Below are positions 8,565-62,281 of a DNA stretch of 64,000 nucleotides, piece after piece. The notes under the pieces were generated by a model. That model searched no databases, was not told where the DNA came from, and saw nothing but the letters and a program-made list of their open reading frames with translations. Positions within the stretch are counted from its first letter, which is position 1, and each line of letters begins with the position of its first letter. The position numbers and the translations under genes were made by a program. Source of the DNA: a virus (taxonomy: Duplodnaviria > Caudoviricetes); IMG/VR virus record IMGVR_UViG_2531839010_000002, positions 9,765 to 73,764 of that record, one strand, 5' to 3'.

Positions 8565-8885
8565 ATGTTTGAGGACTGGGACCTGATAGTCTCCAGTTTT
8601 TTGTCGCAGTACGGGTTAAGAATCAGAACGAAGGAATTTGAAACAGTCTCCTGGGACGAATTCAAGGCACTGATTGCCGGCCTGTCCCCGGAGACTGCAT
8701 TAGGCCGTGTGGTAGCCATCCGGTCCGAAACAGATAAGGATATCATCAAACATTATACAAAGGACCAGCGCCAGATATATGACGATTGGCGCAACCGGGA
8801 AATGAAAGAAATGGATGAGAAAACCTTCGAGAAGGAAATGGCCGGCCTGGAGAAGATGTTTGCGGCTATGTGCGGAGGTGGTTAA
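8565..8885 (+). CDS. Gp15-like tail assembly protein (start uncertain)
   Basis: DWDLIVSSF..QYG motif of A118 Gp15-like proteins. Confidence 0.65.
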   Translation: MFEDWDLIVSSFLSQYGLRIRTKEFETVSWDEFKALIAGLSPETALGRVVAIRSETDKDIIKHYTKDQRQIYDDWRNREMKEMDEKTFEKEMAGLEKMFAAMCGGG

Positions 8886-9030
8886 GATTGAGAAAGTAAG
8901 ATGTGTAAGATGTGGACAGACCCTTCTCCTGGCGGAATACGTTAAGGGGGAAATTAAATGTCCCAGATGTAAAACCATAAACAGGTTGGATATAAAAATG
9001 ACAGAGCCTAGAGCCGCACCAAAGGAGTAG
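8878..9030 (+). CDS. Com-family (Mu Com-like) zinc-ribbon protein; start uncertain
   Basis: RCVRCGQTL...EIKCPRCKTIN two CxxC knuckles in ~50 aa. Confidence 0.75.
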   Translation: MVKIEKVRCVRCGQTLLLAEYVKGEIKCPRCKTINRLDIKMTEPRAAPKE

Positions 9031-9075
9031 CGAGCCAGAGCCTGCTTTTGAATTAAAAGGCAGGTGATATGTATG
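9003..9075 (+). promoter_or_regulatory. Four (A)GAGCC repeats plus SD-sequestering hairpin before tape measure ATG
   Basis: Repeats at 9003, 9010, 9032, 9037; stem CCTGCTTTT/AAAAGGCAGG covers start of SD AGGTGA. Confidence 0.65.
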
Positions 9076-50500: not shown

Positions 50501-51265
50501 AAGGCACCGGCTACCGGGCAAGAACGAGATTCAGCAAGTTCTTTAATCTGCCGGAGCTGATGAACCTGTTCAAAGAAGTGGCGGACATCAAGACCGCCGA
50601 CCAACTGAACCTGCCCACCCCGGAGGTGGAATACCACAACATCGTGGCGCAGCCTACCGAACATCAGCAGGAAATGGTCAAGGCTCTTTCGGAGCGTGCA
50701 TCGCTGGTACACAGCGGAACCGTTGACCCGTCTCAGGACAATATGCTCAAGATTACCTCGGATGGCCGTAAGCTGGGGCTTGACCAGAGGATCGTCAACC
50801 AGATGCTGCCGGACGAATCTGGCACAAAGGTCAATCAGTGTGTGGACAACATCATGCAGATCTGGCGGGACGGCAAAGCTGACAAGCTGACCCAGTTGGT
50901 GTTCTGCGACATTTCCACGCCCCAGTCAGCTCTCTCCAAAAAGGCAGCCAAACAGCTGGACAATCCGCTGCTTCACGGGTTGGAAGAAGCAATCCCACTG
51001 GATGAACCGGAGCCTGCCTTTACCATCTATGAGGACATCCGCCAGAAGCTCATCGCCCAGGGGATGCCTGCCGAGCAGATCGCCTTTATCCACGAAGCCA
51101 ACACAGAGGTACGGAAAAAGGAACTGTTCTCCAAGGTCCGCACCGGGCAGGTGCGTGTCCTATTAGGAAGCACTGCCAAGATGGGTGCTGGCACCAATGT
51201 GCAGGACCGCCTTGTGGCGTTGCATGATTTGGACTGTCCGTGGCGTCCGGGAGATGTAGGACGGA

Positions 51266-51281
51266 TTTTGCGGACATTCAA
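51266..51281 (+). repeat. Left subterminal inverted repeat TTTTGCGGACATTCAA (partner 62178-62194)
   Basis: Reverse complement of TTGAACTGTCCGCAAAA with one-base gap. Confidence 0.8.
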
Positions 51282-51310
51282 AATAAAAAAGAATGTGGAG
51301 GTAACAGACA

Positions 51311-51685
51311 ATGGCAAAATCATTATTTGAGGAACTGGGCGGCAAATACGAAAGGCAAGGCGATTATCTAATTCCATGTATAACTTTACCCGCCGAAGAA
51401 GAACAGGCAATAGGTATCTGGGGGCAGCGGCATTTGGATTATCTGAAGCATCACTGTAAAGTTACATACACCAATCTTCTTACAAGCGGCAGACTTAACG
51501 CTTACCTTGCCGACATTGACAGACAGGCACAGGAACGCTTTGAAAGGCTCATAGAGGGTATGAAACAGGCACAGGGCATAACGGAACAGCTAAAGGCAGA
51601 AAACGCCTTAGAATGGACAGGATGCCTCAATAACATAAGGGCTTGTGCGAGGGAGATTGTGGAAAAGGAAATTATTTTTGCATAA
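51311..51685 (+). CDS. tnpV: TnpV family protein
   Basis: LFEELGGKYERQGDYLIP motif; SD GGAGG. Confidence 0.85.
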   Translation: MAKSLFEELGGKYERQGDYLIPCITLPAEEEQAIGIWGQRHLDYLKHHCKVTYTNLLTSGRLNAYLADIDRQAQERFERLIEGMKQAQGITEQLKAENALEWTGCLNNIRACAREIVEKEIIFA

Positions 51686-51698
51686 ACAGATGATTAGT

Positions 51699-51727
51699 GG
51701 CAGGGTGAAATCCTGCCGCTTTTTTTG
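51699..51727 (+). terminator. Terminator after tnpV
   Basis: GGCAGG-GTGAAAT-CCTGCC-GC-T8. Confidence 0.75.
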
Positions 51728-51742
51728 CTTTAGTTTGTCAGC

Positions 51743-51771
51743 TTGACAAATAAAGGGTTAAGGAATATAAT
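51743..51771 (+). promoter_or_regulatory. Consensus sigmaA promoter of tet(O)
   Basis: TTGACA-17-TATAAT. Confidence 0.9.
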
Positions 51772-51980
51772 TAGATTCAGTTTTATACAAGGAGTTAATA
51801 AATATGCGGCAAGGTATTCTTAAATAAACTGTCAATTTGATAGTGGGAACAAAAAGTAGCAGTCCCGTTTCACTTTTAATATGGGGCTTAGTTTTTTGTA
51901 CCCAGTTTAAGAATACTTTTATCATGTAATTTTATATGCCCGAAAACATATAAGTGTTTTGGGGCTATTGGAGTTATTTG

Positions 51981-52015
51981 CCCAGTGATAGGAGTATTTA
52001 TCACTGGGTATTTTT
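51981..52015 (+). promoter_or_regulatory. Attenuator-like hairpin in tet(O) leader
   Basis: CCCAGTGATA/TATCACTGGG stem followed by TATTTTT. Confidence 0.6.
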
Positions 52016-52051
52016 ATGCCCTTTTTTGGGTGTTGATAGGAGGAAAATCAC

Positions 52052-53971
52052 ATGAAAATAATTAACTTAGGTATTCTGGCTCACGTTGACGCAGGAAAGA
52101 CAACATTAACGGAGAGTTTATTGTATACCAGTGGTGCAATTGCAGAACTAGGGAGCGTAGATAAAGGCACAACAAGGACAGATACAATGAATTTGGAGCG
52201 TCAAAGGGGAATCACTATCCAGACAGCAGTGACATCTTTTCAGTGGGAGGATGTAAAAGTCAACATTATAGATACGCCAGGCCATATGGATTTTTTGGCG
52301 GAAGTATACCGTTCTTTATCCGTATTAGACGGAGCAGTATTATTAGTTTCTGCAAAGGATGGCATACAGGCACAGACCCGTATACTGTTTCATGCATTAC
52401 AGACAATGAAGATTCCGACAATTTTTTTCATCAATAAAATTGACCAAGAGGGGATTGATTTGCCAATGGTATATCGGGAAATGAAAGCAAAGCTTTCTTC
52501 GGAAATTATAGTGAAGCAAAAGGTTGGGCAGCATCCCCATATAAATGTAACGGACAATGACGATATGGAACAGTGGGATGCGGTAATTATGGGAAACGAT
52601 GAACTATTAGAGAAATATATGTCAGGGAAACCGTTTAAAATGTCAGAACTGGAACAGGAAGAAAACAGGAGATTCCAAAACGGAACGTTATTTCCCGTTT
52701 ATCACGGAAGCGCTAAAAACAATCTGGGGATTCGGCAGCTTATAGAAGTGATTGCCAGTAAATTTTATTCATCAACGCCTGAAGGTCAATCTGAACTATG
52801 CGGGCAGGTTTTTAAGATTGAATATTCAGAGAAAAGGCGGCGTTTTGTTTATGTGCGTATATATAGCGGAACATTGCATTTGAGGGATGTCATTAGAATA
52901 TCTGAAAAAGAGAAAATAAAAATCACAGAGATGTGTGTTCCGACAAACGGTGAATTATATCCATCCGATACAGCCTGCTCTGGTGATATTGTAATTTTAC
53001 CAAATGATGTTTTGCAGCTAAACAGTATTTTGGGGAACGAAATGCTGTTGCCGCAGAGAAAATTTATTGAAAATCCTCTCCCTATGCTCCAAACAACGAT
53101 TGCAGTAAAGAAATCTGAACAGCGGGAAATATTGCTTGGGGCACTTACAGAAATTTCAGATGGCGACCCTCTTTTAAAATATTATGTGGATACTACAACG
53201 CATGAGATTATACTTTCTTTTTTGGGGAATGTGCAGATGGAAGTCATTTGTGCCATCCTTGAGGAAAAATATCATGTGGAGGCAGAAATAAAAGAGCCTA
53301 CTGTTATATATATGGAAAGACCGCTTAGAAAAGCAGAATATACCATCCACATAGAAGTCCCGCCAAATCCTTTCTGGGCTTCTGTCGGGTTGTCCATAGA
53401 GCCGCTCCCTATTGGAAGCGGAGTGCAGTATGAAAGCAGAGTTTCACTTGGATATTTAAACCAATCGTTCCAAAATGCGGTTATGGAGGGGGTTCTCTAT
53501 GGCTGCGAGCAGGGGCTGTATGGATGGAAAGTGACAGACTGTAAAATCTGTTTTGAATATGGATTGTATTATAGTCCTGTAAGTACCCCCGCAGACTTTC
53601 GGCTGCTTTCCCCTATCGTATTGGAGCAGGCTTTAAAAAAAGCAGGGACAGAACTATTAGAGCCATATCTCCACTTTGAAATTTATGCACCGCAGGAATA
53701 TCTCTCACGGGCGTATCATGATGCCCCAAGGTATTGTGCAGATATTGTAAGTACTCAGATAAAGAATGACGAGGTCATTCTGAAAGGAGAAATCCCTGCC
53801 AGATGTATTCAAGAATACAGGAACGATTTAACTTATTTCACAAATGGGCAGGGAGTCTGCTTGACGGAGTTAAAAGGATACCAGCCAGCTATTGGTAAAT
53901 TTATTTGCCAACCCCGCCGCCCGAATAGCCGTATAGATAAGGTTCGGCATATGTTCCACAAGTTAGCTTAA
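52052..53971 (+). CDS. tet(O): Tetracycline ribosomal protection protein Tet(O)
   Basis: 639 aa, [17 protein letters not shown]...[10 protein letters not shown], matches Tet(O) as recalled. Confidence 0.95.
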
Positions 53972-54022
53972 CAGCTTGCAAAAGTCGTATAAAATGAGAT
54001 TTGAAAGGATTAGAGACTAATT

Positions 54023-54196
54023 ATGATGAAATGCGAATGGATATTGTGTCCTGTTTGTGGGAGCAAAACCCGTAATAAAATTAGGAAGGACACTGTTTTG
54101 AAGAATTATCCCCTTTATTGTCCAAAATGCAGACAGGAAAGATTGATTAAAGTTGACAACTTGAAGATAACTGTCATCAAAGAGCCAGACGCTTAA
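54023..54196 (+). CDS. cpp2: 57-aa cysteine-rich KTR zinc-ribbon protein
   Basis: WILCPVCGSKTR...YPLYCPKCRQE; hand-translated; usual position after tet(O). Confidence 0.85.
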   Translation: MMKCEWILCPVCGSKTRNKIRKDTVLKNYPLYCPKCRQERLIKVDNLKITVIKEPDA

Positions 54197-54249
54197 GACG
54201 CAGAGCCGATGAAATTGTGGAACAATTCACGAATCATCGGCTCTTTTTG
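54181..54249 (+). terminator. Terminator whose 5' arm is the last of four AGAGCC/AGACGC repeats
   Basis: Repeats at 54181, 54187, 54196, 54202; stem AGAGCCGATGA/TCATCGGCTCT + TTTT. Confidence 0.8.
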
Positions 54250-54684
54250 TTTCGTATTTGAAAGAACAAACTCACCAAATAAAAAAAACGATATTCGGGT
54301 GGGTTATTTTGTTATACCCTAAATTACCCTCTGAATTTGTTTTTAAATTTGGAGGGATTTTTTTATGTTCTTTTTTCGGGCGGTTATTCATCTGCTCATA
54401 CGAAGTAAAATTTATCAATACATAGCATGTCAGAGAACGGCAGGAAACCAGTTAAAAAAATTTCTGCCAGTGCAGCGGTACTTCTCACCTTGAAAGTAGA
54501 AGTACAATCTCTATACAACAGAATTATTATTTCCTATAACCGTAAAGGTCACAGAGCCTTTGCGGTTTTTCTTTTGTCGATTTTTGTTGGAAAGTGCCGC
54601 AGGGCTGTTTCTGATATGCGGTGTCGTTCTCCGCCTCTCCATCTGGATTTTACATTTCAAAAATTCGGATTGGAGGACAATACG

Positions 54685-55194
54685 GTGAAATATGCACCAA
54701 GAAAGGTATATATCAGGGAAAGTGGCGGCTATGTGGAATTATCTTACACGGACTTCTGCCGCTGCAGGGAATCCGACCAGACCTACATGGACAAGCTGTT
54801 TATCCCCATTCAAGGATGTCTGCTGGAAGTCTTGAGGGAGCAATACACAGACTTCTACCGAGATAAGGAACGGTGGCGTTATCTGCAAAAATTAGATACG
54901 AAGAACAGCCTGCTTTCTCTGGATGGATTTACGGACAGAGAGGGGAATCCTCTGGACTTTATCGCTGATGAAGCGGCGGACATTGCGGAAACCGTTGTCA
55001 ATGCGGTTATGGTGGACAGGCTGAAAGCCGCCCTGCCTTTGCTGTCGGATAGTGAACAGGAGCTGATACAGGCAATCTTTTTTGACGGACTTTCCGAGCG
55101 TGAAGTTGGGGAGAGGTTGGGCATAACCCAGAGCGTTGTGAACAAACGCAAAGCTAGAATCCTTATAAAACTAAGAAAGATAATAGAAAATTAA
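54685..55194 (+). CDS. Sigma70 region-4-like HTH protein
   Basis: GTG start with SD GGAGG; LSEREVGERLGITQSVVNKRK. Confidence 0.8.
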   Translation: MKYAPRKVYIRESGGYVELSYTDFCRCRESDQTYMDKLFIPIQGCLLEVLREQYTDFYRDKERWRYLQKLDTKNSLLSLDGFTDREGNPLDFIADEAADIAETVVNAVMVDRLKAALPLLSDSEQELIQAIFFDGLSEREVGERLGITQSVVNKRKARILIKLRKIIEN

Positions 55195-55288
55195 ATTTTA
55201 AGGCGTTCAGCCCCCTTGTTTTTTCCTTTGGGAAAATGAGGGGGCTTTTGCTGCCCTCTCAATCAATTCTGATTGGAGGAAAAGAAGC

Positions 55289-55714
55289 ATGGCATACAAC
55301 CACGGACGGGAGGACAGGAAATGGCGTATCTGGAAAGAAGCGGAGGAAAAGCTGCTGCGTGAGTGCGGCGTTGATGAAGCGACTATTGAGCAGATACGCA
55401 TTGCGGACAGGGCAGACTTCAATTCCAACAGGCGGTTTTACCGATGGACGAATGACGTTGCGGAATACCTTGAGGACATGGCAGACAGGGAGCGGCAGAC
55501 GGAAGTGGGTACGGTTGCGGAGTTACTGGACGAGATTGAGAGCGAAAATCTCTATCAAGTATTAGTCACGGTGGACGGGCGTACCTTGAAAATCGTCCTG
55601 CTGAAAATGCAGGGGTATTCCACAAAGGAGATTGCCCCACTTGTGCATTTGACGACTGGTGCCATCTATGCGAGGTTAGACCATCTGCGGAAGAAGCTGC
55701 GGAAAATTTTGTAA
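55289..55714 (+). CDS. Sigma70 region-4-like HTH protein
   Basis: GYSTKEIAPLVHLTTGAIYARL. Confidence 0.8.
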   Translation: MAYNHGREDRKWRIWKEAEEKLLRECGVDEATIEQIRIADRADFNSNRRFYRWTNDVAEYLEDMADRERQTEVGTVAELLDEIESENLYQVLVTVDGRTLKIVLLKMQGYSTKEIAPLVHLTTGAIYARLDHLRKKLRKIL

Positions 55715-55798
55715 GCGTCTAATACATCCCATTATCCTGCGGGCTACTGGGTGGGGAGTGAAATCTCCCCGCTTATTTTTTGGCAGGAGGACAGCGGG

Positions 55799-56272
55799 AT
55801 GGCATACAGGGTTAAGGCATACACGCTTCGGGAGGAATCCACGGAAAGTAGCACAAGGTATTTTATCAGTTTTAAGGACGGGCAGGGCAAATCCCACGAG
55901 TTGGAAGTGTCGGAACAGTTCTTTATGGAGTTTCGGCAGATGGAACGCAGGAACAGGAATCTTCTCCAATGGGACGAGCGGCACAGGGAGTTCAACGAGG
56001 TATGGGACGAAACCCTTTACAGACGGGCGTTGCGTGTGCCTAAGAGCCTTGATGAACGCATGATTGAAGAAGAACGGAATGAAACGCTCTGTAAGGCGGT
56101 TGAGAGCCTGCCAGAGATACAAAGGCGGCGTTTCCTGCTTTATTACGAGTATGGGTTCAATTTTTACCAAATCGCTGCGATGGAGCATTGCACCGCTTCA
56201 GCAATACAGAAATCTGTTGCGATTGCAAAGGAGAAAGTAAAGGCGGAAATGAAGAAGTATCTCCAACCGTGA
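55799..56272 (+). CDS. Sigma70 region-4-like HTH protein
   Basis: LPEIQRRRFLLYY..NFYQIA.ME. Confidence 0.8.
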   Translation: MAYRVKAYTLREESTESSTRYFISFKDGQGKSHELEVSEQFFMEFRQMERRNRNLLQWDERHREFNEVWDETLYRRALRVPKSLDERMIEEERNETLCKAVESLPEIQRRRFLLYYEYGFNFYQIAAMEHCTASAIQKSVAIAKEKVKAEMKKYLQP

Positions 56273-56425
56273 CCGACACCGACCGAAAAAGAAATCTGTT
56301 TTTTATTTGTGTGGGATTGGCGGCATTACATACTCTCACTTTTTTCGTGGGAGTAAATCTATTTTTAAGGAGGTCAACGCCTATGTGCAACGAAAACAAA
56401 AACACCGACCGAAAGGAGGAAACCC

Positions 56426-57457
56426 ATGCAGAAGTTACAGACAATCAACGCCGAAACGCTCCTTTATGAGCCGCTTGAGAAGCCGTCCTTTGTGGTAGAC
56501 AGCCTTATTCCCACAGGATTGTCGCTGTTCTGCGGCTCACAGAAGATAGGCAAGAGCTGGCTCATGCTGAAGCTATGCCTATGCGTGTCACAGGGAATCC
56601 CTTTATGGGATATGCCGACAATGGAGGGCGATGTGCTTTACCTCTGCCTTGAGGACACGTTCTGCCGCATACAGGACAGGCTGTTCCGATTGACGGACGA
56701 AGCAAGCGGGCGGCTCCACTTTGCCGTGGCAAGCTGCAAGTTGTCAGACGGTCTTATCGTGCAGCTTGAGGATTATCTGAAAGATTACCCAGACAGCAGG
56801 CTCATTGTGATTGATACCTTGCAGAAAGTCCGTACAGCTTCAAAAGACAACGCCTATGCAAGCGACTATGGGGACATCTCCCTAATCAAAGACTTTGCCG
56901 ACAGGCATTCTCTGGCGGTGGTAGTCGTACACCATATCCGAAAGCAGAATGACAGCGACGTGTTCAACAAGGTGTCTGGGACGACAGGCTTAACGGGGAG
57001 TGCGGACGCTACCTTTGTTCTGGAAAAGGAGAAACGGGCATCCGATACCGCCAAGCTGTATGTGACAGGCAGGGATACGCCTTATCAGGAATTCACGCTG
57101 CGTTTCCGTGATTGCAGTTGGGAACTTGTGGAGAGGAAAACGCAGGAGCAGCTTGCGAAAGAAACGATACCAGATGTCCTTTTTCGGTTAGTGGATTTTA
57201 TGAGGGATAAGGAAGAATGGGCAGGCACGGCAACGGAACTGTTAGCCGCTATGGGGGAAACGGAAACCGTACCCACGGTGATTACGAAATGGCTGAATGA
57301 ATACCGCACCACATTTTTAAGCGAGAACCGTATCTGCTACCAGTACAGCCGCAGGAAAGACGGCAGGCAGATTGCCCTTGCAAGGCGGGAGGGTGACAGC
57401 GGTGACGGTGGTGACAGCGATATTGGGATACCCCCTGTTACTGTCATTGACGCTTAA
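56426..57457 (+). CDS. AAA (RecA-like, RepA-type) helicase
   Basis: GSQKIGKS Walker A, LIVIDTLQ Walker B, VVHHIRK. Confidence 0.85.
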   Translation: MQKLQTINAETLLYEPLEKPSFVVDSLIPTGLSLFCGSQKIGKSWLMLKLCLCVSQGIPLWDMPTMEGDVLYLCLEDTFCRIQDRLFRLTDEASGRLHFAVASCKLSDGLIVQLEDYLKDYPDSRLIVIDTLQKVRTASKDNAYASDYGDISLIKDFADRHSLAVVVVHHIRKQNDSDVFNKVSGTTGLTGSADATFVLEKEKRASDTAKLYVTGRDTPYQEFTLRFRDCSWELVERKTQEQLAKETIPDVLFRLVDFMRDKEEWAGTATELLAAMGETETVPTVITKWLNEYRTTFLSENRICYQYSRRKDGRQIALARREGDSGDGGDSDIGIPPVTVIDA

Positions 57458-57856
57458 AGCCGTGTAAAGTTGGCGGCTCTGCCCTGCGGGTGACAGCGGT
57501 GACGGCGGTGACAGTGATTTTAGGATACCCCGCCGCTGTCATCCCTACGGGAGAACACCCCGCAAACGCAAAGTGCAGGCGTGGGATTCACCCGCCCTTT
57601 TCGGCGTGTAAAACCACCCCTGCGGTCAGAAAAATCCATCTGATTTTTCCGACTGCGTTTACAGGGTGTAACACACTACACTTTGCCCTGCAAAGAGCCG
57701 TGTGCCAGACGTTCCCTCTGGACTCCCTTAAAGCAGGGCTGTCGCCCTGCTATCCTGCGCCTTGCGGCTTCGGATAAAAGAATGTCGGGGTGACGGTGAC
57801 GGCTCATGCGAGGGGGTATCCCAATATCGCTGTCACCACTGTCACCGCTGTCACCC
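57390..57856. repeat. Three ~45-bp iteron blocks of GGTGAC(A/G)G(C/T) units ending in GGATACCCC; two direct, one inverted
   Basis: About 57390-57436, 57488-57532 and inverted 57806-57856. Confidence 0.8.
57662..57688 (-). promoter_or_regulatory. Candidate MOBV-type oriT
   Basis: Minus strand AAAGTGTAGTGTTACAC resembles pMV158-family oriT; flanked by CAGGG/CCCTG; upstream of mobV. Confidence 0.55.
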
Positions 57857-57893
57857 AAAGGGCAGTTACCCGCCGAAGAAAGGAAGATGATGA

Positions 57894-58862
57894 ATGATGC
57901 CCTATGCAATCCTGCGTTTCCAGAAACGCAAAGCGGGCGGCGTTGCGGCTTGTGAACGCCACAATGAACGGAAGAAAGAAGCCTATAAAAGCAATCCAGA
58001 TATAGATATGGAACGCTCGAAAAATAACTACCACCTTGTAAGACCGCCACGTTACACCTACAAGAAAGAGATTAACCGCATGGTAGCCGAAGCAGGGTGC
58101 AGGACAAGGAAAGACAGCGTGATGATGGTGGAAACGCTTATCACGGCTTCACCAGAATTTATGAACCAGTTACCGCCCGAAGAACAGAAAGCGTATTTTA
58201 CGATGGCTCTGGACTTCATTTCGGAGCGTGTCGGGGAGAAAAATATCCTCTCCGCTGTCGTCCACATGGACGAGAGAACGCCGCATATGCACCTCTGTTT
58301 TGTGCCGATTACACCAGACAACAAGCTGTCAGCGAAAACCATTTTAGGCAACCAGAAATCATTATCCGAGTGGCAGACCGCCTACCATGAGCGGATGTCC
58401 TCACGGTGGAATCAGCTTGAACGGGGGCAATCCTCAATGGAAACGAAACGGAAACACGTCCCCACATGGCTCTATAAATTGGGCGGCAGGCTTGATAAAC
58501 AGTATGGGGAAATCGTGTCTGCCCTGTCCGACATCAACGCCTTTAACGCAGGGAAGAAGCGTGACAAGGCTCTGGAACTGATAGCGGCATGGCTCCCAGA
58601 CGTGGAGAAATTCTCTAAAGAAATCGGGAAACAGCAGGCGTATATCGACAGTTTGAAAGAGAGAATCGGGCAGGAATCAGACTATGCGGGGCGTATGCGT
58701 GATGAAAAGTACGAGCAGGAATTAAAGGTGCAGAAAGCGAATCAGAAGATATTTGAATTGCAGAGAACCAACGAACAGATGGGGCGGCTGCTGTCAAAAA
58801 TACCGCCAGAAGTGTTGGAAGAATTGCAGAAAAACCATAAAAGCAGAATGAAAGAAAGGTAG
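57894..58862 (+). CDS. mobV: MobV / Mob_Pre relaxase
   Basis: HNER motif and VVHMDERTPHMH. Confidence 0.9.
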   Translation: MMPYAILRFQKRKAGGVAACERHNERKKEAYKSNPDIDMERSKNNYHLVRPPRYTYKKEINRMVAEAGCRTRKDSVMMVETLITASPEFMNQLPPEEQKAYFTMALDFISERVGEKNILSAVVHMDERTPHMHLCFVPITPDNKLSAKTILGNQKSLSEWQTAYHERMSSRWNQLERGQSSMETKRKHVPTWLYKLGGRLDKQYGEIVSALSDINAFNAGKKRDKALELIAAWLPDVEKFSKEIGKQQAYIDSLKERIGQESDYAGRMRDEKYEQELKVQKANQKIFELQRTNEQMGRLLSKIPPEVLEELQKNHKSRMKER

Positions 58863-58870
58863 ATATGTGA

Positions 58871-59725
58871 ATGAAGAAACAGGATTTTAAGGTGTTAAAG
58901 ACCAAAGATTTGTACCCATTTCCCGACAATCCGTTTCATGTGGCAGAGGATGAAACGCTGTCAGAATTAGCGGAAAGCATCAAGGAATTTGGCATTGTCA
59001 CGCCGATAATCACACGCCCGAAAGAGGACGGAAATGGTTATGAAGTGATTGCAGGACAGCGGCGTGTCCGTGCTTCTGAACTTGCAGGGATAAATACCGT
59101 GCCTGCATTTGTCCTGCCCTTAGACCGTGACCGAGCCATCATTACCCTTGTAGACAGTAATTTACAGCGTGAAAATATCCTGCCGAGCGAGCGGGCGTTT
59201 GCCTACAAGATGAAATCCGAAGCCATGAAGCGGCAGGGGTTTCGCACGGACTTAACCTCGTCACAAGTTGTGACGAAGTTGCGGACGGATGACAAAGTGG
59301 CACAGGGCTTCGGCGTGGGCAGGATGACCGTGCAGCGATTTATCCGATTGACGGAACTGATACCGCCGATTTTGCAGATGGTGGACGAGGGGAGAATCGC
59401 CCTCACACCTGCGGTGGAACTGTCCTTCTTGAAGAAAGACGAGCAGGAAAACCTCTTTGCCACGATGGAGAGCGAAGAAGCAACTCCCTCACTCTCACAG
59501 GCACAGCGGATGAAACAGTTAAGCCAGAGCGGACGGCTTGATATGGATACGATATTTGCGATTATGACCGAGAAAAAAGGAAACCAGAAAGAAACCTTGA
59601 AAATCAACACAAGCAAGCTGAAAAAATACTTTCCGAAGAACACAACGCCGAAGCAGATGGAGGAAACCATCATACGACTTCTGGAACGTGAGTTGCAGAG
59701 AAAACGGAGCAAGGACAGCCGCTAA
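58871..59725 (+). CDS. ParB-like protein
   Basis: GQRRVRA, DSNLQRE, paralog of ICE ParB. Confidence 0.85.
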   Translation: MKKQDFKVLKTKDLYPFPDNPFHVAEDETLSELAESIKEFGIVTPIITRPKEDGNGYEVIAGQRRVRASELAGINTVPAFVLPLDRDRAIITLVDSNLQRENILPSERAFAYKMKSEAMKRQGFRTDLTSSQVVTKLRTDDKVAQGFGVGRMTVQRFIRLTELIPPILQMVDEGRIALTPAVELSFLKKDEQENLFATMESEEATPSLSQAQRMKQLSQSGRLDMDTIFAIMTEKKGNQKETLKINTSKLKKYFPKNTTPKQMEETIIRLLERELQRKRSKDSR

Positions 59726-59802
59726 TCTTCTCTTTTCGGGAAGTAAATATGAAACTCTGGACGGATAAAAACCAGAAAGCCAAGACAGAAAAGGGGCAGG
59801 AA

Positions 59803-60033
59803 ATGAAAGAAATCCAATATAAGATTGTAAAGGAAATCGCCGTATTGTCTGCGAGTGACAGTGGCTACACAAAAGAAATCAATCTTATCTCATGGAACGG
59901 GAGAGAGCCGAAATATGACATCCGCAGCTTTTCCCCGAACCGTGAGAAGTGCGGAAAAGGAATAACTTTAAACGCTGATGAAGCGGCGGCACTCCTTGAA
60001 GCATTACAGAAAGAATTGCACAGCGGGGATTGA
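59803..60033 (+). CDS. YdbC/PC4-like ssDNA-binding protein (alternative start 59749)
   Basis: KEINLISWNG..PKYDIR..KCGKGITL. Confidence 0.8.
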   Translation: MKEIQYKIVKEIAVLSASDSGYTKEINLISWNGREPKYDIRSFSPNREKCGKGITLNADEAAALLEALQKELHSGD

Positions 60034-60103
60034 TGGTATCTGATTGACAGGGCGGGGCGTTTCCAGACGTTCTCCTGCCCTGTCTGGAAAGGAAGATTTA
60101 AGT

Positions 60104-60295
60104 ATGGGCGAGGATAAGAAAGCAGATAAAAAGAGGAAGCGTATCGTGCCGAAAGCACCAGTGCAGATGATAATCAGCCGTGAATATGTCGGCACACAGA
60201 CAGTCACAGAAGCGTTTGTCCCGATTATCTCCGAGGATATTCGGAAGAAGATTGCCGAGGGCGACACCTTCGACAATGAGGGGATATCCGCTTAG
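60104..60295 (+). CDS. 63-aa protein upstream of recombinase (possible accessory factor)
   Basis: SD GAAAGGAAG; open frame. Confidence 0.6.
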   Translation: MGEDKKADKKRKRIVPKAPVQMIISREYVGTQTVTEAFVPIISEDIRKKIAEGDTFDNEGISA

Positions 60296-60349
60296 AATGT
60301 ACGCAATGGAACATGAAAACAGATAGGACAGATACGGAGGTTTTACAAT

Positions 60350-62281
60350 ATGGCAGGAACAAGAACGGAGAATAAGATTTATGAAGTCGGCATGTACTGC
60401 CGCTTGTCAAAGGACGATGGCACGGATAACGAGAGTGCGAGCATTGCGACACAGAAATCCATCCTCACGGATTATGTGAAAAAGCAGGGATGGCACTTAG
60501 CAAAAACGTATGTGGACGATGGTTATTCTGGTACGAATTTCCAAAGACCAAGTTTCCAAAACATGATTAAGGACATTGAAAACGGACTGATAAACTGCGT
60601 TATCACGAAAGATTTATCCCGTCTGGGGAGGAACTATCTTGATTGTGGGTTATATCTCGAAGTCTTTTTTCCAGAGCATAACGTGAGGTATATAGCGGTC
60701 AATGACGGCGTGGACACGCTCAATAAATCAGCGATGGACATCACGCCTTTCCGCAACATCCTAAACGAGATGTATGCCGCCGACATATCAGTCAAGATAA
60801 AATCAGCGTACCGTGCGAGGTTTCAGCAGGGGAAATTCATGGGGACGACAGCACCATACGGATATGTCAAAGACCCTGCCGACCATAATCACCTATTGAT
60901 TGATGATAAAGTTGCACACGTTGTAAGAGAAATATTTGACCTTGCGTTAGCGGGCAACGGAATCGCCAAAATCCGCAAGCACATCAACAAACAGCATATC
61001 CTACGCCCTGCCGCTTATGCGGTGGAGCAAGGGTCAACAGGCTATGAGCGGCACTTTGAGGGTAACGAGGAAAACCGTTATATTTGGAGCGAGAACAGCG
61101 TAAGGGGCATTTTAAGAAGCCCGATATATGCGGGAAACCTTGCAGGCTACAAGCGGATTGCCGCCAACATGAAAAGCAAGAAACGCCCCTCTAAGCTGCC
61201 CGAAGAATGGGAAGTGATACCCGACACCCATGAGGGGATAGTCACGCAGGAGGAGTTTGACAACGTACAGCAGCTTATTACAAGCCGCAGATTACCAGAA
61301 AACAAGGGCGGCTTTGAGAACATCTTTGCAGGCGTTATCAAATGTGCGGACTGCGGCTATGCTATGCGGGCTATGAGTGCCAACAGGAGGAAACGCCCCG
61401 ACATCATCGACTGCGTACAATATACCTGCAATAATTATGGCAGATACGGTAATATCATGTGTACCGCACACAGCATTGAAGCGAGGGACTTGTTCAACGC
61501 CGTCCTTATCGACATCAACCGATTTGCGGATATGGCGGTGAGTGATGAAAAGGCGGTGAGGGCGATTGAAAAGCGGCTCACGGAAACAGACCAGAGCAAG
61601 GCAAAGGCATTGGAAAAGGAGCAGAGAAAGCTGAACAAACGCCTTGCGGAACTGGACAGGCTGTTTTCTTCCCTTTATGAAGATAAGGTGATGGAGCGTA
61701 TTACGGAGCGGAATTTTGAGATGATGTCAGGGAAATACCAGAAAGAGCAGCTTGAAATTGAAGCAAGGCTGAAAGAGGTAATGGAAACGCTTAACGACAG
61801 CTATGAGAAGTCGCAGGGTGTCCGTGACTTCCTCTCCTTAATCCGCAACTATCAAGGCATTAAGGAACTGGACGCAACCATCATAAACGCACTCATAGAC
61901 AAGATACTTGTTTCGGAACGTGAGAAGCTTACAGACGGAACGGTGCGGCAGGAAATCAAGATTTATTATAAATTCATCGGCTTTGTCGGTGAATTACATA
62001 TCACACCCACAAAGCGGTGGACAGCATTAAAGCCTAAGAATTGCACGGTATGCGGTGTTGAATATGTTCCCTGCTCTGCAATATCAAAGTATTGCCCAGA
62101 GTGCAGGAAAAAGATAAGAAAGGTTCGAGGAACGGAAACGAAGCGCAGGAGCAGGGAGCGAAACAGACAGGCATGTATTGAACTGTCCGCAAAAAATGAC
62201 CGACTGACCTTGCCCAGCGCAAGGGCCGTATCGAGCGTCAGGGCAACCAGAATCCTCTTGTCCATGTGTACCGCTATGTGA
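60350..62281 (+). CDS. Large serine recombinase (TnpX/TndX-like), reading across attR
   Basis: YCRLS, DDGYSG, KDLSRLGR, zinc ribbon CADC..C..C; final residues come from helicase DNA. Confidence 0.93.
   Translation: MAGTRTENKIYEVGMYCRLSKDDGTDNESASIATQKSILTDYVKKQGWHLAKTYVDDGYSGTNFQRPSFQNMIKDIENGLINCVITKDLSRLGRNYLDCGLYLEVFFPEHNVRYIAVNDGVDTLNKSAMDITPFRNILNEMYAADISVKIKSAYRARFQQGKFMGTTAPYGYVKDPADHNHLLIDDKVAHVVREIFDLALAGNGIAKIRKHINKQHILRPAAYAVEQGSTGYERHFEGNEENRYIWSENSVRGILRSPIYAGNLAGYKRIAANMKSKKRPSKLPEEWEVIPDTHEGIVTQEEFDNVQQLITSRRLPENKGGFENIFAGVIKCADCGYAMRAMSANRRKRPDIIDCVQYTCNNYGRYGNIMCTAHSIEARDLFNAVLIDINRFADMAVSDEKAVRAIEKRLTETDQSKAKALEKEQRKLNKRLAELDRLFSSLYEDKVMERITERNFEMMSGKYQKEQLEIEARLKEVMETLNDSYEKSQGVRDFLSLIRNYQGIKELDATIINALIDKILVSEREKLTDGTVRQEIKIYYKFIGFVGELHITPTKRWTALKPKNCTVCGVEYVPCSAISKYCPECRKKIRKVRGTETKRRSRERNRQACIELSAKNDRLTLPSARAVSSVRATRILLSMCTAM

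Follow-up and report, generated by a model that had tools for sequence, protein, structure and literature searches.

A conserved hexamer array fused to a terminator at the ends of KTR zinc-ribbon genes: a possible Com-like RNA switch closing resistance operons

The nearest studied relative of the system described here is the Com/mom switch of phage Mu, in which a tiny zinc protein with a CCCC arrangement is encoded just upstream of its target and binds within or beyond the 3' end of its own ORF, beside an inhibitory hairpin. SELEX with the Com zinc finger yielded a bipartite GAG(N)2CC motif, which the authors suggest is recognised as CC(N)2-3GAG, and Com opens a hairpin (PMC6483171). A second point of comparison is provided by the antiterminators HutP and LicT/SacY with RAT, where repeats of an RNA motif extend into the 5' arm of an intrinsic terminator, such that binding of the protein should block formation of the terminator. 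The third is the conjugative element Tn916, the regulation of which has been described in terms of Ptet attenuation, read-through, the split sigma factor Sig7-8 and the antiterminator canT (PMC7288454; bioRxiv 10.64898/2026.10.01.756105). Models of Tn916 need Ptet read-through into orf7/orf8 (bioRxiv 10.64898/2026.10.01.756105), and orf6 occupies, after tet(M), the position that corresponds to the gene considered below (PMC7288454). The Tn916 regulation literature that we examined gives no role to orf6 or to its terminator; canT, for its part, is a cis antiterminator that is unrelated to the KTR element and located elsewhere in Tn916.

The DNA analysed here is a 64-kb stretch (the window), in which a KTR zinc-ribbon gene at the position of orf6 ends over tandem hexamers that run into a terminator hairpin:

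54023–54196, plus strand: KTR zinc-ribbon gene, 57 aa, two CxxC pairs, at the position of Tn916 orf6
54181–54192, plus strand: hexamers 1 and 2, AGAGCC (54181–54186) and AGACGC (54187–54192), within the last codons, (K)EPDA
54196–54207, plus strand: hexamers 3 and 4, AGACGC (54196–54201) and AGAGCC (54202–54207), hexamer 4 being nucleotides 1–6 of the stem
54202–54244, plus strand: terminator hairpin, with an 11-bp outer stem (54202–54212/54234–54244) and a 7-bp inner stem
54245–54252, plus strand: T-tract TTTTGTTT, directly 3' of the KTR hairpin

The KTR stop codon (TAA, 54194–54196) lies between the two hexamer pairs. A preliminary description of this DNA had placed the repeats at 54181–54192 and 54196–54207, which is correct to the base, and had read the last repeat as the 5' arm of an 11-bp terminator stem with a T-tract, which is confirmed by both the sequence and its fold. 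The RNA fold of the hairpin has a minimum free energy of −29.2 kcal/mol (z=−3.7), and the site combines a stable, G+C-containing stem with a U-tract on the transcribed strand, as is typical of an intrinsic terminator. Counting both strands, the window contains exactly two clusters of at least three AGA(G/C)(G/C)C hexamers within 45 nt, one at the stop of each of two zinc-ribbon ORFs; the expected number is 0.09, and two clusters were reached in 1 of 300 Markov simulations. A search of Rfam over 51600–54600 had its sole match, sRNA_0030, in the tet leader and nothing at 54170–54260, and we found no Rfam family or published description for the KTR hexamer-terminator element. Contigs from RNA libraries run across the KTR terminator, which lends weak support to read-through; such contigs cannot prove that the RNA was continuous, and carry-over of DNA is possible. 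One of them, X1, has a length of 2,752 nt and its end at 54507, and its start would fall near 51756 if it is colinear upstream.

The preliminary description had also noted a two-CxxC ORF (its cpp2) ending over the repeats, and this is borne out by the KTR ORF. Its product matches the Pfam family Cys_rich_KTR (PF14205) with E=1e-31 and 109 bits (cut-off 25.5) over profile positions 2–54 of 54, and contains the motifs CPVCGSKTR and CPKC, the columns of which are invariant in 24 sequences. Structure prediction yields an all-beta zinc ribbon (pLDDT 78), for which a Foldseek search of the PDB recovers generic zinc ribbons only (LysW, Trm112 and ribosomal proteins, all with E>0.8), and a PDB sequence search gave no significant match. 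In Pfam the protein matches zinc-ribbon families only, with no known antiterminator family among them and no match to the Com family (PF10122). The phrase "cysteine-rich KTR" is rare in the literature and, to our knowledge, neither Tn916 orf6 nor the many relatives of KTR have an assigned function so far.

Examination of KTR genes picked by the Pfam model alone, from 400 genomes of one class, gave 45 informative ORFs. A full four-hexamer array is present at the stop in 27 of the 45, a variant array in 8, and an array at the operon end with one extra gene between in 2; the pattern-negative ORFs number 8, of which 3 are variants by eye. Among the phage Com-like genes, the AGAGCC array is limited to relatives of at least 82% identity. 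In one KTR gene that lacks the array (L113), the terminator stem begins AAGCCGCC. Where the array is translated, the protein ends in EPDA, EPDAxTQSR or EPDAxDAEPMN, depending on the frame in which identical nucleotides are read, and in L114, L117, L119 and L134 the whole array is untranslated, following an earlier stop. Codon choice in the tail departs from that of the remaining gene among 52 KTR representatives below 90% nucleotide identity:

Glu codon GAG: 38/39 in the tail, 29/166 elsewhere in the gene
Pro codon CCA: 34/37 in the tail, 23/159 elsewhere in the gene
Asp codon GAC: 34/36 in the tail, 18/71 elsewhere in the gene

The E-P-x-A peptide to which the preliminary description had drawn attention does occur in both zinc-ribbon proteins of the window (KEPDA and TEPRA); as a functional peptide, however, EPDA is rejected, because the same nucleotides are read in several frames and the tail codons are fixed, and it is better seen as a by-product of the RNA motif than as a feature of the protein. 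The inner hexamers change jointly, to AGCCGC twice in L110 and to AGTCGC twice in L090, and in L134 the array consists of four GAGCC units. Together these observations show that the KTR array is a conserved nucleic-acid element, beyond what either chance or coding would produce.

The array is not bound to the KTR stop itself. In L091, L150, L165 and L217 the KTR gene is followed by a radical-SAM gene, and the array and terminator appear only after the latter, about 0.65–1 kb downstream; in L115 another gene, of 208 aa, stands between KTR and the full array with its terminator. These arrangements bear on a reading in which no protein reads the array, and ribosomes finishing the KTR ORF melt the terminator, so that read-through would report how closely translation follows transcription. 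The position of the stop codon would suit such coupling, since it is commonest at stem positions 9–11 and otherwise lies deeper in the stem or, as in the window, 6 nt before it. However, coupling leaves the fixed hexamers and the codon choice unexplained, and the sequence is kept both in arrays that lie 37–43 nt past the stop (L114 and L117) and in arrays that follow another gene (L091, L115 and L150). Transcription and translation are, moreover, largely uncoupled in Bacillota, and we consider this reading improbable.

The uniformity of the flank could alternatively reflect recombination among mobile elements, in which case the terminator would be an ordinary one and the array functionless. 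In favour of this, near-identical copies of the tet(O)-KTR cassette are present in 80 genomes from several phyla, and mosaic tet genes attest to frequent recombination here. The tet(O)-KTR-terminator unit is shared at 98–99% identity by an Enterococcus and a large number of Campylobacter plasmids. Against it, the array does not vary even though the hairpin interior next to it and the remaining KTR gene have diverged to about 50–60%, and the break-points of the cassette fall 50–110 nt past the hairpin and not at the array. An array carried along by recombination alone is accordingly a reading to which we give little credence.

The hairpin, too, is preserved beyond its sequence. Across 24 diverged KTR hairpins the mean stem is 17 bp, most have a T-rich tail, and sequence conservation covers the outer 9 bp of the stem. 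Pairwise similarity of the inner stems is only 54%, but their folding is better than that of shuffled versions (mean z −2.9; 18/24 below −2); as MAFFT/RNAalifold misaligned these inner stems, covariation in them was assessed from shuffles and from folds anchored at the stem base. The alignment of the outer stem contains 19 G-U cells and 3 A-C cells, and this excess of G-U indicates that the hairpin acts as sense-strand RNA, unlike a DNA site. A covariance model built from KTR-type sites finds the KTR site alone in the window (84 bits, E=1e-22). Behaviour of the KTR hairpin as a sense-strand RNA terminator is supported. A natural disruption of the element is present in an E. coli tet(M) plasmid (L340:3040–3100), where an IS256-family insertion starts immediately 3' of the final base of the KTR stem and the T-tract is lost.

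The same data speak to the suggestion that the hexamers serve as a DNA site, bound for example by a recombinase or by sigma-like or HTH regulators. Such a site could account for direct repeats accompanied by one inverted copy (GGCTCT), and regulator genes lie near many of the loci. It is nevertheless highly improbable in our view: the array is always sense-oriented and fused to the terminator, the G-U to A-C ratio is 19 to 3, KTR copies in Campylobacter and E. coli plasmids have no regulator genes nearby, and the element junctions are not at the array.

The operon closed by the KTR element in the window, and the region that follows it, contain these features:

51743–51771, plus strand: promoter-like site, a perfect TTGACA-17-TATAAT, probably the tet(O) operon promoter
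51831–52010, plus strand: tet leader, with an attenuator-like terminator hairpin at 51979–52010, just before tet(O)
52052–53971, plus strand: tet(O) ribosomal protection gene, a 639-aa ORF; the homologous plasmid locus is annotated Tet(O)
54268–54303, plus strand: conserved hairpin with an A-rich loop, from the alignment with L084, L103 and L110
54327–54356, plus strand: second terminator-like hairpin (T2) with a T-run, conserved
54538–54567, plus strand: third terminator-like hairpin (T3) with a T-run, the stem conserved, the loop AGAGCC not
54685–55194, plus strand: sigma-70 region 4 protein, start inferred by homology with an annotated plasmid gene
55289–55714, plus strand: second sigma-like protein, 141 aa, with homologues downstream of other KTR genes

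The tet leader matches Rfam sRNA_0030 with 70.8 bits and E=3e-13, under the gathering score. Downstream of KTR the window codes for a Mob_Pre relaxase, an AAA_25 protein and three proteins with sigma-70 region 4; the first two of these lie, together with TnpV, within window positions 51255–62207. The gene orders tet(M)-KTR, tet(S)-KTR-HTH and tet(O)-KTR-sigma all occur, and L092 provides a further case. KTR thus directly follows tet(M), tet(S) and tet(O) and precedes Orf9-like or sigma-like genes, as in Tn916, the match to which is one of position; the window element differs from Tn916 in carrying tet(O) and a Mob_Pre relaxase. The preliminary description had called the arrangement analogous to tet(M) read-through in Tn916. 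The link itself stands, but given that KTR directly follows tet(M) and tet(S) as well, the relation is one of homology and not of analogy.

More generally, KTR is the last or last-but-one gene of cargo operons, the upstream genes of which include those for Tet ribosomal protection proteins, ABC-2 permeases, MatE, MFS and FtsX proteins, a CAAX protease and a flavodoxin-reductase. Downstream lie co-directional sigma-like genes, convergent Orf9-like HTH genes, TetR genes or others, and KTR is the sole constant neighbour of the array, the downstream genes being variable. A 15-mer scan of viral contigs returned 80 loci, of which 50 are chance hits in unrelated coding DNA; the matches that have a hairpin are all in KTR operons where the upstream DNA is sufficient to tell.

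Between the KTR terminator and the sigma-like gene lies a 430-nt leader (54250–54700), which is conserved in L084, L103 and L110, the cargo of which is unrelated, and which looks like a multi-step regulatory leader. An inverted repeat adjoins the Shine-Dalgarno sequence (SD) of the sigma-like gene at about 54630–54680. We considered T3 as a second KTR-responsive site and rejected it, since its AGAGCC loop is not kept in L084, L103 and L110. With T2 and T3 both placed before the sigma-like gene, the KTR terminator cannot be the only gate, and read-through at the KTR site would by itself be insufficient to pass tet(O) transcription into the sigma-like genes, as had been proposed earlier.

The second hexamer cluster of the window belongs to a phage locus, situated between tail chaperone genes and a tape-measure gene:

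8878–9030, plus strand: phage zinc-finger gene of the Com family, about 50 aa, behind the tail chaperone genes and ahead of the tape-measure gene
9003–9042, plus strand: phage GAGCC array, AGAGCC-T-AGAGCC (9003, 9010) and CGAGCC-AGAGCC (9031–9042), with the stop TAG (9028–9030) between
9041–9064, plus strand: phage hairpin, 9 bp, the 3' arm of which is the SD of the tape-measure gene (ATG 9073)

This order of repeats, stop, repeats and SD-hiding hairpin is as previously described. The encoded protein matches the Pfam Com family (PF10122) above the cut-off (E=2.4e-6), and an hhalign comparison of its family with Mu Com scores 97.2%; judged by its sequence, it is a true homologue of Com. All 28 of 28 distinct relatives directly precede a tape-measure gene, and the SD-covering hairpin is kept in all 28, with a compensatory G-C to A-T change. 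Distant phage relatives (L289–L338) have AAGCC-AGCC, in place of AGAGCC, directly before the SD hairpin; with L113 also considered, the minimal feature may be an (A/G)AGCC at the foot of the 5' arm of the hairpin. The phage locus resembles Com/mom also in that its hairpin hides an SD, but its target is a tape-measure gene and not mom. The phage AGAGCC-U-AGAGCC, furthermore, fits the CC(N)2GAG form, whereas the KTR array, with GAGCC at both ends and AGACGC units between, does not match the published Com spacing.

How far the KTR and phage loci represent one module is less clear-cut than the preliminary description had it. In its favour, the phage protein is related to Com as above, and a profile comparison of the phage family with the KTR family scores 86.7%, a kind of score that small CxxC proteins inflate; KTR compared directly with Mu Com scores 25.6%. 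On the RNA side, the repeat-stop-repeat-hairpin layout is real and conserved in the KTR family, but the KTR-type covariance model scores the phage site at E=9.4 and so misses it, which makes the two sites alike in design and not demonstrably members of one RNA family. Certain KTR-family genes do come close to the phage arrangement: in L137 and L138 such genes, with GAGCC doublets and a hairpin, precede tape-measure genes, and a search for relatives of the phage-type KTR of L138 gave one weak match. Within the KTR family proper, L090 has AGTGCC AGTCGC TA AGTCGC AGAGCC without a terminator, and its third hexamer pairs with a stretch covering the SD of the next, radical-SAM-like, gene. The layout at this KTR stop is Com/mom-like.

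Set against the described systems, then, the KTR site shares with Com/mom a tiny CCCC zinc protein and a putative binding region at the 3' end of its ORF beside a hairpin, and has the overlap of a repeated motif with the 5' arm of a terminator seen in the HutP/LicT type. It differs from Com/mom in that its hairpin is an intrinsic terminator that hides no SD or start, that the next gene is hundreds of bases off or convergent (in the window the next start after the hairpin is about 440 nt away), and that KTR is only a remote relative of Com, with AGACGC inner units and another spacing in its array. From the HutP/LicT type it is set apart by the absence of any sequence relation in Pfam, by the position of the site at the operon end and not in a 5' leader, and by the fact that the regulator is encoded by the very operon that it would extend.

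Because the stem of the terminator starts at its base with hexamer 4, occupation of that hexamer by KTR would allow read-through. We therefore tentatively favour a Com-like protein/RNA switch that acts on a terminator, which is plausible although we stop short of holding it probable, and in which we infer both that KTR is the ligand of the array and that its binding gives antitermination. In this proposal the KTR protein, made from the same operon, would bind the single-stranded hexamer array on the nascent RNA; by holding the first six bases of the stem it would part the remaining hairpin from the U-tract, and the polymerase would read through. Read-through would rise with accumulated KTR, that is, with sustained expression of the operon. 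The element closes cargo operons, mostly for resistance or efflux, of conjugative and mobilizable elements, including the Tn916-type tet(M)-orf6 unit, and the phage locus would be a Com/mom-type version of the same logic, directed at translation of the tape-measure gene. A point against antitermination is that in many loci the next gene after the KTR array is convergent (Orf9-like) or unrelated.

That same observation fits an effect of the opposite sign, in which KTR binding would stabilise the hairpin or the 3' end, so that expression of the operon brings more termination or greater mRNA stability and the downstream regulators are insulated. Overproduction of Sig7-8 is reported to kill the host, which would give insulation a value; the outer 9 bp conserved in sequence would suit recognition of a closed stem, and the convergent Orf9-like genes after many KTR copies agree with it. 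On the other hand, Com opens its hairpin (PMC6483171), and the hexamers upstream of the KTR stem are single-stranded RNA. The arrays of L090 and of the phage overlap hairpins that sequester an SD, where opening is useful, which favours hairpin opening as the general action and leaves stabilisation unlikely. A broader form of the favoured proposal, that KTR/Orf6 proteins are Com-type RNA-binding antiterminators and form, with hexamer-tagged terminators, a widespread and undescribed class of operon-end switches in conjugative elements and phages, is possible but distinctly more doubtful than a switch on the KTR terminator itself.

Resistance elements of very wide distribution have KTR genes behind tet(M), tet(O), tet(S) and a large number of efflux genes, and the KTR element is short, sharply defined and easily testable. 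If the proposed switch is real, it would supply a missing step of the Tn916 model by explaining in what way and at what time tet-promoter transcription arrives at the sigma genes that commit the element to excision, and would tie expression of the element's regulatory genes to sustained, drug-induced activity of the resistance operon. The Com paradigm, until now that of a single phage translation switch, would likewise widen to the opening of hairpins in general, terminators included.
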